From Nanobdellota archaeon (lineage in GTDB: Archaea > Nanobdellota > Nanobdellia > SCGC-AAA011-G17 > GW2011-AR17): DNA of 11,039 nucleotides. Positions 4,970 through 6,676 of the stretch are shown here, piece by piece. The notes beneath the pieces were generated by a model. It was given only the letters and a program-made list of their open reading frames with translations. It had not been told where the DNA came from and did no database searches. Positions within the stretch are counted from its first letter, which is position 1. Each line of letters opens with the position of its first letter. Made by a program: the position numbers and the translations under genes. The DNA lies in NCBI GenBank assembly GCA_016784245.1, contig JADHVA010000018.1:1-11039 (forward strand), read 5' to 3'.

Positions 4970-6676
4970 ATGACATTGGAAAAAAAACTGGAATTACAAG
5001 ATACAGAATTAATATTAGTTCAACCTTTCAAAAGAATAGGGTATTTGTTTAGACCTGATAGGGTTTTTTTAGATAGTGAAAGTTATTGTCATGTTTTTGA
5101 TAGGGCATCTGGAGATACTTTTTTAGTAGAAGGGCCTCAAAGAAAAGTATTGAAATATGATGAAAGAATTTCTGGAGAGATTTTGGAAAAAGTTGTTGTT
5201 CCAGATAGACATTATACAGTAATTGAAAATCCACTTGATAATGAAACGGGAAAAGTACAATATGGAGAAAGAGAAGTTAGAGAAGGACCTAAAGTTTTTG
5301 CTTTGCACCCTGGTGAAGTATTAGCTCAAGAAGTTACAAGTGAACATATTTTAACAAAGAATGATGCTATACATGTACAAGCTTTATCAGATTTTGGAGA
5401 ACATAAAGCTGGTGATAAATTTTCTATTAAAGGACCAAGGAATTATGTGCCAAGTAAAGATGAAAAAGTATTAAGGCAAATAAAAGCAAAAGCATTATCA
5501 GATACAGATGGAGTTTATGTACAAAATGTTGATAGTGGCGAAGCAAGACTTGTAAAAGGTCCACAAGAATATTTTTTAGAAGCAAATGAAGATGCTTTTA
5601 GAAAAGAACTAACTGAAAATGAATTAGAAGCTTTAGGTTTACGAAGTCAAATAGGTAGAAGTGGAGTAAGAGTTCTTACTAGACAAGCTGCGAATACTTC
5701 TTTTCTAAAAAATAGTTCTAATGCTTGTGTTTTGGAACTTGAAGATAAAGAAGTTGTATTTTTGTATGATGGAAGTGATACTAGGATTATTCAAGGACCT
5801 AAGACTGAATTTTTAGGTCCATATGAAAGACCAAGAGTACTTTCATTATCAGGTGGAAAACCAATTAGACCTAATGCACTAAAAATTGCTTTGTTAAAAT
5901 TAGGACCTGATTTTATTTATGATCAGGTTATTGTGAGAACTAAGGATAATGCAAAACTTAAAGTAGATGTAACTTACAAATGGCGTTTTTCTGACAGTAG
6001 TGAGGAAGGATTAAGGAAAGCATTTAGTATAGATGATTTTGTAGGATATGCTGCTGAAACTTTATCTTCAGATATTAGAACTGTTGCTGCACAACATGAT
6101 TTTGAAGAATTTCATGCAGGTTCTTTAGAATATATTACTAAAGAAATTTTTGGAGAAGATGAGAAGTTAAAAGTTTTTGAAGAGAATGGTTTGGAAATCT
6201 TTGGAATTGATGTAACAGGAATTACTCCAGAAGATTCTGAAGTTGCAGATAAATTAAATGGTGCAATTAAACAGAATATGGAAATATACTGTGATAGACT
6301 TGTATTAAAAGCAAAGCTTGAAGCAGAGAAGCAAGAAGTTGAAGGTAAGAGAGATATCGAAAAGCAAAGGGCTGAATTAATAATTGCAACAATTCAGAAT
6401 GAGAGAACATTAGAAATTGAGAGATCAAAAATTAAAGCAGAAGGAAGAGAAATTGATGCAGAATCTGAAGCTGGACAAATTAGGATTGTTGGAGAAGCAA
6501 GAAGGAATGAAAATTTAGCTGAGTTATCTGCAAAAGTTGAAAGGCTTTCTAGAGAGGATGCAAGTAATTTTATTGAACTTGAACGTATCAAAACCTTTTC
6601 AGATACTGAGAAGTTAGTGATAGTTCCAACAGATGCACAATTTGTATTACCATATTTAGGAGGTGAGAAAAAATGA
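4970..6676 (+). CDS. Major vault protein (MVP) homolog, ~569 aa. It has ~5 N-terminal MVP repeats, an SPFH-like shoulder domain with the LGPDF motif, a cap-helix coiled coil and the start of a cap-ring.
   Basis: Direct comparison with rat/human MVP as remembered. [14 protein letters not shown] matches [27 protein letters not shown] matches [30 protein letters not shown]...[15 protein letters not shown] matches ALHLKALLDFEDKDGDK...[31 protein letters not shown] matches [46 protein letters not shown]...[10 protein letters not shown]...FEEFH matches [30 protein letters not shown]...FSVPDFVGDA...FDDFH. The C-terminal coiled coil and [11 protein letters not shown] match KSTLITDGSTPINLF. Confidence 0.85.
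   Translation: [568 protein letters not shown]
6659..6666 (+). promoter_or_regulatory. Internal Shine-Dalgarno site (GGAGGTGA) inside the 3' end of the MVP-like gene, 7 nt upstream of the nucleosidase ATG. Marks translational coupling.
   Basis: ggaggtga is read directly. The stop and start overlap as ATGA at 6673-6676. Confidence 0.6.

Follow-up and report, generated by a model that had tools for sequence, protein, structure and literature searches.

The major vault protein gene and its product

The window analysed here, a stretch of 11,039 bp with GC roughly 30% (contig JADHVA010000018.1 of the Nanobdellota archaeon assembly GCA_016784245.1), carries a gene encoding a short major vault protein (MVP) homologue, followed on the same strand by a gene encoding a methylthioadenosine/S-adenosylhomocysteine (MTA/SAH) nucleosidase, hereafter MTAN. 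A single open reading frame (ORF) spans the MVP region (4943..6676, forward strand), and opens at TTG 4943 in the ORF listing. ATG 4970 is likely the true start, and is preferred to TTG 4943 because GAGGAAGGAG, resembling a ribosome-binding site (RBS), is found at 4953-4962, i.e. 8-17 nt 5' of it, and because the annotated 568-aa product and the N-termini of homologues agree with this choice. Protein residues are numbered from ATG 4970; the sole exception is the interval 47-187 mentioned below, counted from TTG 4943. The product of the gene so defined (4970..6676, forward strand) is 100% identical to NCBI ISS01_01715 (P0001), a protein from a metagenome-assembled genome (MAG) named 'Nanoarchaeota archaeon', the host being a tiny symbiont of the DPANN group of archaea. 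It has a computed mass of 64 kDa and a pI of 5.1, and no transmembrane segments.

ISS01_01715 is a genuine MVP homologue. Pfam domains follow each other in the order Vault_2, Vault, Vault_4, Vault_3, MVP_shoulder and Band_7. All four vault repeat families (PF01505, PF17794, PF17795, PF17796) score above their own cut-offs, as does Band_7, the SPFH domain (E 1e-6, 29.4 bits, cut-off 23.6), and MVP_shoulder (PF11978), the cut-off of which is 25 bits, scores 98.5 (E 3.4e-28). Among the sequences of the PDB, phmmer matched rat MVP at E 1.8e-71, and the human and rabbit proteins at about 1e-71 as well. One alignment, which is collinear, extends over rat residues 266 to 769, from repeat R6 through the cap helix, and a second one places residues 47-187 on rat 14-170 (61 bits). 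An AlphaFold2 (AF2) model of the single chain, built from a 58-sequence family alignment (mean pLDDT 86.7), features five beta-units, an alpha/beta shoulder and one helix of 104 aa. When the model was compared to the PDB by Foldseek, each of the top 12 matches was a full-length MVP chain (E 5e-40 to 4e-34; identity about 29%, query-normalised TM-score about 0.6). R1-R7 fragments follow, and then SPFH cages, namely HflK/C, erlin, prohibitin, flotillin and stomatin.

The repeats were identified by hhalign. The family alignment was cut into the five beta-units of the model, and these were compared to an alignment of 18 eukaryotic MVPs cut into R1-R9, the cuts being placed by using the rat fragments of the phmmer alignment as a ruler, with rat domain boundaries that we take to be those of Tanaka et al. 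2009. All units lie on the forward strand. The protein opens with an extension specific to the DPANN clade (residues 1-28, 4970..5053), which has the motif ..RPFKR..Y.L.P.., two short predicted helices and pLDDT values of 51-70. The extension is basic (pI 8.2), and comparison of N-termini showed that it is absent from most bacterial members of the family and from eukaryotic MVP. Repeat A (residues 29-74, 5054..5191) is R1-like, scoring 62 with R1 at a probability of 98%, and has five strands in the model. Repeat B (75-124, 5192..5341; Pfam Vault_2) is of the R2/R6 type, with scores of 100 for R6 and 61 for R2, and repeat C (125-173, 5342..5488; Pfam Vault) is of the R3/R7 type (R7 79, R3 77, R4 54, R5 48). 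Repeat D (174-260, 5489..5749; Pfam Vault_4) is R8-like (R8 100), carries a helical insert, and is aligned to the rat R8 region by phmmer also. Repeat E (261-311, 5750..5902; Pfam Vault_3, E 5.7e-13) is R9-like (R9 87). According to hhalign, R2 resembles R6 within eukaryotic MVP itself, and R3, R4, R5 and R7 are mutually alike. That Vault_2 denotes the R2/R6 type and Vault the R3-5/R7 type follows, independently of hhalign, from the domain order Vault_2, Vault, Vault_2, Vault, Vault_3, shoulder seen in a longer bacterial MVP. Each repeat type is thus represented once in the archaeal protein, and four repeats in the middle of the eukaryotic barrel have no equivalent in it.

These data bear on an earlier note made from the sequence of the window, which had described an MVP with about five repeats instead of nine, about 290 aa preceding the LGPDF motif of the shoulder, and the middle repeats missing. 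The interval it gave, 5080-6640, falls entirely within the MVP ORF. On each point the description holds: model and profiles agree on five repeats, and profile delineation against eukaryotic MVPs did not reveal nine degenerate ones; 311 residues precede LGPDF, 283 of which belong to repeats; the middle four have no hhalign counterpart. The proposed alignment of the N-terminal repeats to R1-R3 is found, being the 61-bit match to rat 14-170 already mentioned, but repeats B and C match R6 and R7 equally well or better. Similarly, the R8-R9 resemblance noted just upstream of the shoulder is real, but the VYVQ segment quoted for it resides in repeat D, the penultimate repeat.

The shoulder (residues 312-422, 5903..6235) has the SPFH/Band-7 fold and opens at GPDF. 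It had been called intact, and the MVP_shoulder profile is indeed covered from position 1 to 118 of 118. A cap helix of normal length, about 150 aa, had also been claimed, and here the data disagree. DSSP assigns to the AF2 model a single predicted helix of 104 residues (423-526, 6236..6547), the whole part following the shoulder is 146 aa long, and the rat helix has about 155. Both phmmer and hhalign align the predicted helix to the eukaryotic cap helix over roughly its first two thirds; of the 209 columns in the C-terminal part of the eukaryotic profile, hhalign matches no more than the initial 130 or so, with a gap of 11 residues. The last 42 residues, encoded with the stop codon at 6548..6676, include a short helix (531-542) followed by the conserved hydrophobic motif EKLVIVPTD, in a tract with pLDDT below 66. 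K548 and P553 of the motif are conserved in at least 90% of the family, and the tail is a possible candidate for a cap-closing strand. The protein had been said to end just past the start of the cap-ring, without a long tail. The missing tail is borne out, since only 42 aa are found beyond the long helix; the position relative to the cap-ring is not, as no cap-ring can be aligned.

The nucleosidase gene, the short MVP family and the neighbouring genes

The MTAN gene (6673..7356, forward strand; PNP_UDP_1, E 7.6e-32) has an ATG overlapping the MVP stop codon (ATGA, 6673-6676), and its own GGAGGTGA site upstream. To judge from this arrangement, the two genes are translationally coupled. The encoded protein scores 89.8 bits with TIGR01704 (cut-off 73.8) and matches MTANs of known structure in the PDB at E 1e-20. 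Catalytic-site motifs are conserved at E13, M167-E168, R187 and S190-D191, which we take to correspond to E. coli Glu12, Met173-Glu174, Arg193 and Ser196-Asp197.

Conservation of the pair was monitored in 34 distinct loci carrying short MVP genes, the window included. MTAN is directly adjacent, and on the same strand, in 15 of them (window, L001, L006, L007, L008, L013, L017, L019, L020, L023, L026, L029, L033, L034, L035), and start and stop codons overlap or abut in 8 of the 15. It is found within 4.5 kb on the same strand in four more (L009, L010, L031, L036), so that the genes are linked in 19 of the 34 loci. The pair occurs in both archaeal and bacterial subgroups, in which the genes beside it differ from locus to locus; between the subgroups identity is 37-46% for MVP and 23-28% for MTAN. 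Nine linked MTANs were scanned: MTA/SAH nucleosidase models were the best ones for all, and six scored above the TIGR01704 cut-off. We infer from gene order alone that MTAN is a functional partner of MVP. No paper linking MVP with methylthioadenosine nucleosidase was found in the searchable literature library.

A sequence search retrieved 89 homologues of the window protein, about 60 of which measure 540-630 aa and have the same layout. Source names include Nanoarchaeota, Woesearchaeota, Uhrbacteria and Eremiobacterota, and the bacterial homologues belong mostly to the candidate phyla radiation (CPR). Genome matches were found in Woesearchaeota, Nanoarchaeota, Parcubacteria, Doudnabacteria and Anaerolinea, and a profile search of 1.84 billion representatives gave 534 clusters at E < 1e-30. 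The term truncated, used in the earlier note, is thus inappropriate: the layout is the norm in about 60 proteins of DPANN archaea, CPR and other bacteria forming a clade of their own, and the short MVP is not a degraded copy.

Lengths were compared in the alignment of 58 family members. The shoulder measures about 109 aa throughout. As for the cap helix, most proteins have 104 aa, about a dozen have exactly 115 (+11), and a single one has 144. The number of repeats varies from 4 to about 10. A group of 476-aa proteins lacks repeat C and has four repeats; among DPANN proteins, four have one repeat more, and two (752 and 793 aa) four or five more. The rule in the family is hence that shoulder and helix are fixed and repeats are variable. 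A fixed helix length, with a variant longer by 11 residues or about three turns, would fit a structural ruler.

Relationships were assessed by a crude, bootstrapped neighbour-joining (NJ) tree of DPANN, bacterial, four-repeat, cyanobacterial-type and eukaryotic MVPs. The DPANN clade, long members included, is supported by 100/100 replicates, and DPANN, bacterial and four-repeat proteins are joined at 82/100. Long MVPs of eukaryotes and of the cyanobacterial type fall on the side opposite to the short clade, and this topology excludes a recent eukaryotic origin of the short MVP. Short MVPs of five-repeat size, denominated P0062 and P0072 (527-543 aa, from EukProt transcriptomes), form with P0068 an NJ group of their own (90/100). 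They could be either genuine protist proteins or prokaryotic contamination.

Additional features were seen in single loci. Two tandem four-repeat MVP paralogues of 481 aa (L030, 2171-3616 and 3620-5065) reside beside a DDE transposase gene; by analogy with HflK/C or prohibitin 1/2, they hint at a heteromeric cage. DPANN-clade MVP genes are found among many small unannotated ORFs in a 33-kb contig (L004) and in a 7.4-kb uncultivated virus genome of IMG/VR (L015), and the family may also be carried by mobile elements or viruses of DPANN archaea. A viral source of the window gene itself is unsupported: one IMG/VR contig carries a homologue, and the matches in BFVD are limited to generic SPFH proteins, encoded by giant viruses and phages.

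Upstream of the MVP gene, and divergent from it, is a gene for a tandem (double) Lrp/AsnC-type regulator (3879..4853, reverse strand), in which Pfam recognises two HTH_24/HTH_AsnC-type and two AsnC_trans_reg regions. Divergent tandem Lrp/AsnC homologues are present in seven DPANN-clade loci, i.e. the window, L001 (2625-3641), L007 (4050-5117), L014 (4915-6123), L016 (786-1766), L017 (1-898) and L033 (3838-4800), and are replaced by a divergent TrmB-type regulator at three bacterial loci. The intergenic region of 116 bp (4854..4969) is presumed, from reading of the sequence, to host promoter and operator. Within it, the operator search found only one weak 11-nt inverted repeat (4891-4901/4907-4917), and scans for sigma-70 promoters and terminators stayed at the level of shuffled sequences, the sigma-70 model being uninformative for an archaeon.

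Genes for radical-S-adenosylmethionine (SAM) enzymes lie upstream of MVP in three bacterial loci (L008 4433-5479, L009 94-507, L019 3938-4957). A serine hydroxymethyltransferase (SHMT)/class-II-aldolase fusion is directly coupled to MVP in L016 (3585-5426), and a Cys/Met-metabolism enzyme dependent on pyridoxal phosphate (PLP) follows MTAN in L034 (7401-8615). Taken at face value, these neighbours point to salvage of SAM/methionine by-products or of adenine. In L002, as well as in L003 and L018, all on contigs of 300-600 kb, a DPANN-clade MVP gene is located between genes encoding a PARP catalytic domain and a zf-PARP protein. In L002 the former (3334-4083; E 1.8e-6, just above the cut-off) is 4 kb upstream, and the latter (10591-11718) 0.8 kb downstream of MVP. 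The PARP genes flanking MVP in L002 and L018 are suggestive, by analogy, of the vPARP of vaults. SNF2 helicase and SET-domain genes are also found in the three loci.

Other window genes are archaeal in type according to Pfam, and include, besides the tandem Lrp/AsnC gene, a Kae1/TsaD family gene and IMPDH. ORF 84-758 (forward strand) encodes a 224-aa protein that hits no Pfam or NCBIfam family and matches the PADLOC candidate defence family PDC-S70 at E 7e-7; a homologue with 50% identity is found at the equivalent relative position in L014. ORF 900-2276 (forward strand), also conserved in L014, encodes a very acidic 458-aa protein with Ig-like/CARDB/FixG_C-type domains, a signal-like N-terminal segment, a C-terminal hydrophobic helix and a poly-Asp tail, which is probably a surface (S-layer-like) protein. 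ORF 3260-3889 (forward strand, 209 aa) was considered as an analogue of vPARP, and was dropped because its match to Tox-ART-HYE1 is weak and sub-threshold (E 0.006), and because it is not conserved beside MVP elsewhere. An Rfam scan of the whole window for vault RNA or other non-coding RNAs gave only a spurious long non-coding RNA match inside the MTAN gene. A 141-aa ORF seemingly shared downstream in L001 and L002 turned out to be two unrelated ORFs.

Proposed assembly and partner function, and alternative readings

The reading preferred here, with a probability of about 0.7, is that the window hosts a complete and intact short MVP gene, whose product would assemble into a cup as homology suggests, and that the nucleosidase gene is its functional partner, as indicated by gene order only. 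Lateral contacts in the human vault lie for the most part in the helix cap; its shoulder, an SPFH domain, is of a kind typical of cage-forming proteins (PMC13347060). MVP subunits would pack side by side, mainly through a bundle of cap helices, and close into a cup whose wall would have the height of five repeats. Such a cup is expected from the homology to MVP and SPFH cages, because lateral contacts in the human vault are mostly those of the helix cap, and because the matching SPFH relatives of solved structure are closed cups. At 1.5 Å per residue the 104-aa helix spans about 156 Å, against about 233 Å in rat. As the cap helix is one third shorter, the particle is expected to be not just shorter but also narrower, and to contain fewer than 39 subunits; if the size of the ring is proportional to the length of the helix, they might number roughly 20-30. 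The 'mini-vault' proposed in the earlier note is then a reasonable prediction, provided that a narrower cap is included in it. Cups might pair rim to rim as in vaults, or a single cup might sit on a membrane. MVP and MTAN genes probably both respond to the divergent Lrp/AsnC-type regulator, and MTAN would serve as a client or cargo enzyme, or else as an activity under common regulation in the salvage of adenine or SAM by-products.

Several data weigh against this picture. The structural model is that of a monomer. The residues making waist contacts in R1 of human MVP are N22, Q38, D39, N40 and R42 (PMC13347060); a waist interface had been assumed in the earlier note, but the first four residues are not conserved and R42 only is kept, as R66, and the 28-aa extension adds an extra segment at the rim. 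The C-terminal tail has low pLDDT, and its 42 aa leave the eukaryotic cap-ring unmatched in hhalign. MTAN is not found near MVP in 15 of the 34 loci, and for this reason is not obligatory for MVP; in addition, the window MTAN is of canonical length, and sequence comparison recognised no targeting extension in it. Neither vPARP nor TEP1/TROVE was found by Pfam among the proteins encoded in the 11 kb of the window. A further point concerns nucleotide binding. Between its shoulders human MVP has a binding pocket for NAD+, ADP and ADP-ribose (PMC12280208), and the pocket residues described there were traced in the window protein via the rat alignment and the family consensus. Equivalents of R507, P508, D521, F522 and W545 are kept, and those of K506, H509, R511, P565 and K573 are not. 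The basic residues binding the diphosphate (R504, K506, R511, K573) are mostly not conserved, with K297 as the still basic equivalent of R504, and a shared nucleotide pocket is therefore unproven.

The main rival to the free assembly is a single cup docked on the cytoplasmic membrane, which would fence a membrane patch with its open N-terminal rim rather than form a two-halved vault, the DPANN-specific extension serving as a contact to membrane or partner. The best structural matches after MVP are membrane SPFH cages, the unconserved waist residues and the basic 28-aa segment preceding R1 fit this arrangement, and eukaryotic vaults themselves are reported to have been seen in situ on membranes (PMC13100048). 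On the other side, a Kyte-Doolittle scan of the 568-aa protein found neither a transmembrane helix or hairpin that could serve as N-terminal anchor nor any strongly hydrophobic segment, the highest 19-residue mean being 1.06 at residues 304-322, and the N-terminus is charged; no NfeD-type partner gene was found among the neighbours in the window and in the other loci, and most bacterial members lack the extension. We consider a docked cup possible, but rather unlikely. The origin of the short form may be contested as well. R2-R5 may have been deleted from a nine-repeat, eukaryote-like ancestor, for example after transfer from a eukaryote to a prokaryote, as the word truncated in the earlier note would imply; this would explain why repeat B is much nearer to R6 (100) than to R2 (61), and the long collinear phmmer alignment starting at R6. 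Repeat C, equidistant from R3 and R7 (77 vs 79), leans towards an unexpanded ancestor, which together with the internal paralogy of the eukaryotic repeats it fits at least equally well; the short proteins form their own clade in the NJ tree, not nested in eukaryotes, and repeat number shifts both ways in the prokaryotic clade, down to 4 and, in DPANN proteins, up to 6 to about 10. Such a secondary loss appears doubtful.

The function of the pair is also amenable to different interpretations. MVP and MTAN might constitute a vault-like nanocompartment, the ancestral job of which would be binding, concentrating or processing adenine nucleosides or nucleotides. This is an unlikely, speculative extension of the preferred reading; if true, it would join the MVP-MTAN operon to the eukaryotic NAD+/ADP-ribose pocket and to the NAD-consuming TEP1 and PARP4, and provide the first genetically tractable handle on the purpose of vaults. 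By analogy with antiphage effectors with PNP domains, and with the NADase TEP1 in vaults, the genes might alternatively be a two-gene defence or stress module, in which the cage is sensor or scaffold and the PNP-fold nucleosidase an effector degrading adenine nucleotides. MTAN weakly matches 'PN-superfamily' effector models of PADLOC (E 4e-9, about 60 residues), vaults have an NADase, TEP1, and a shoulder to which ADP-ribose binds (bioRxiv 10.64898/2026.05.01.722283), and PARP catalytic and zf-PARP proteins flank an MVP of the clade in L002 and L018. Yet MTAN clears the curated cut-off of a housekeeping MTA/SAH nucleosidase equivalog with its active-site motifs conserved, MVP has no PADLOC match at all, and the other neighbours (radical SAM, Cys/Met PLP enzyme, SHMT-aldolase fusion) are metabolic, all of which makes a defence role improbable. 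Membership in a known antiphage system of PADLOC-DB was rejected, the matches of MTAN being partial and generic to the PNP fold. Finally, the gene lies on just 11 kb of MAG sequence, and might be a fragment, a pseudogene or eukaryotic contamination of the bin. The ORF is intact, is preceded by an RBS-like site and is translationally coupled to the downstream gene; flanking genes are archaeal in type, the same block recurs on contigs as long as 142 kb and 600 kb, and identity to eukaryotic MVPs is only about 30%. An artefact is thus extremely improbable.

The function of vaults has been an open question since 1986, and eukaryotic genomes give no operon context to it. The locus offers a concrete hypothesis, the handling of adenine nucleosides or SAM by-products, in hosts with minimal genomes featuring a conserved regulator-MVP-nucleosidase block. 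The MVP is compact (64 kDa) and should express easily, thus providing a small, tractable system in which to learn how the size of a vault-like cage depends on the number of repeats and on the length of the cap helix, a question relevant to nanocage engineering as well.

Comparison with known systems

Eukaryotic MVP (rat and human; PDB 4V60, 4HL8, 9BW5) shares with the window protein the fold and the order of domains, vault repeats being followed by the SPFH shoulder and by a long helix, only predicted in the latter protein, at 28-29% identity, and the repeats specific to R1, R8 and R9 are individually recognisable. The two differ in repeat number, nine against five, and in the cap, as rat MVP has a helix of about 155 aa (42 turns) and a cap-ring of about 43 aa, while the window protein has a 104-aa helix, no alignable cap-ring and no disordered tail. 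The latter additionally features the 28-aa N-terminal extension, and conserves neither the waist-contact residues, bar R42, nor most basic residues of the NAD+/ADP pocket. Unlike the genes of eukaryotic vaults, the window gene is in an operon with an MTA/SAH nucleosidase gene, and vPARP, TEP1 and vault RNA are not nearby. Inside vaults, TEP1 is active as an NADase (bioRxiv 10.64898/2026.05.01.722283).

SPFH cages (HflK/C, stomatin, prohibitin, flotillin, erlin, QmcA) are similarly organised, in that a long helix comes after the SPFH domain. At the C-terminus they have a closing element, to which the tail of the window protein may correspond, and they form closed, cup-shaped homo- or hetero-oligomers. 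These cages have an N-terminal membrane anchor and lack vault repeats, whereas the window protein is anchorless and carries five repeats extending the wall. Operons of the encapsulin type offer a functional analogy only, as a gene for a self-assembling shell adjoins that of a co-translated enzyme. The folds are unrelated, MTAN has no recognisable targeting peptide, and encapsulation by MVP is purely hypothetical.

Bacterial MVP homologues had been noted earlier in Myxococcales, Cytophagales and Oscillatoriales (PMC3762200, bioRxiv 10.1101/872010), and others in gut phages (bioRxiv 10.1101/2023.11.10.566534). Like the window protein they are prokaryotic MVP homologues, with MVP repeats, shoulder and a coiled-coil region, but the bacterial ones are mostly long forms from gliding bacteria and cyanobacteria. 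Cyanobacterial-type proteins of 766-823 aa (P0064-66) group with eukaryotes in the NJ tree, and have no MTAN neighbour. A 2026 fold survey reported proteins combining an MVP repeat with SPFH in all archaeal groups, measuring about 320-400 aa and containing a single repeat (PMC13607799). No paper joining MVP with DPANN or CPR organisms was found in the searchable literature library.

The closest known system is that of the Asgard archaea. A Lokiarchaeial MVP with cap helix, shoulder and five repeats, modelled as a 10-mer closed cup, was described by Koestlbacher et al. 2026 (PMC12962969), who reported only ten Asgard homologues and did not describe a gene-neighbourhood link. A five-repeat archaeal MVP with a modelled small cup is hence already published, and the protein described here is another one of this kind, likened to it by the published description. 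It differs in belonging to the DPANN lineage, and CPR bacteria have proteins closely related to it. Five-repeat MVPs are hence no peculiarity of the Asgard archaea, which bears on claims that MVP is an Asgard-to-eukaryote signature protein. To the published picture the present analysis adds a family-wide length rule and a conserved MVP-MTAN operon.

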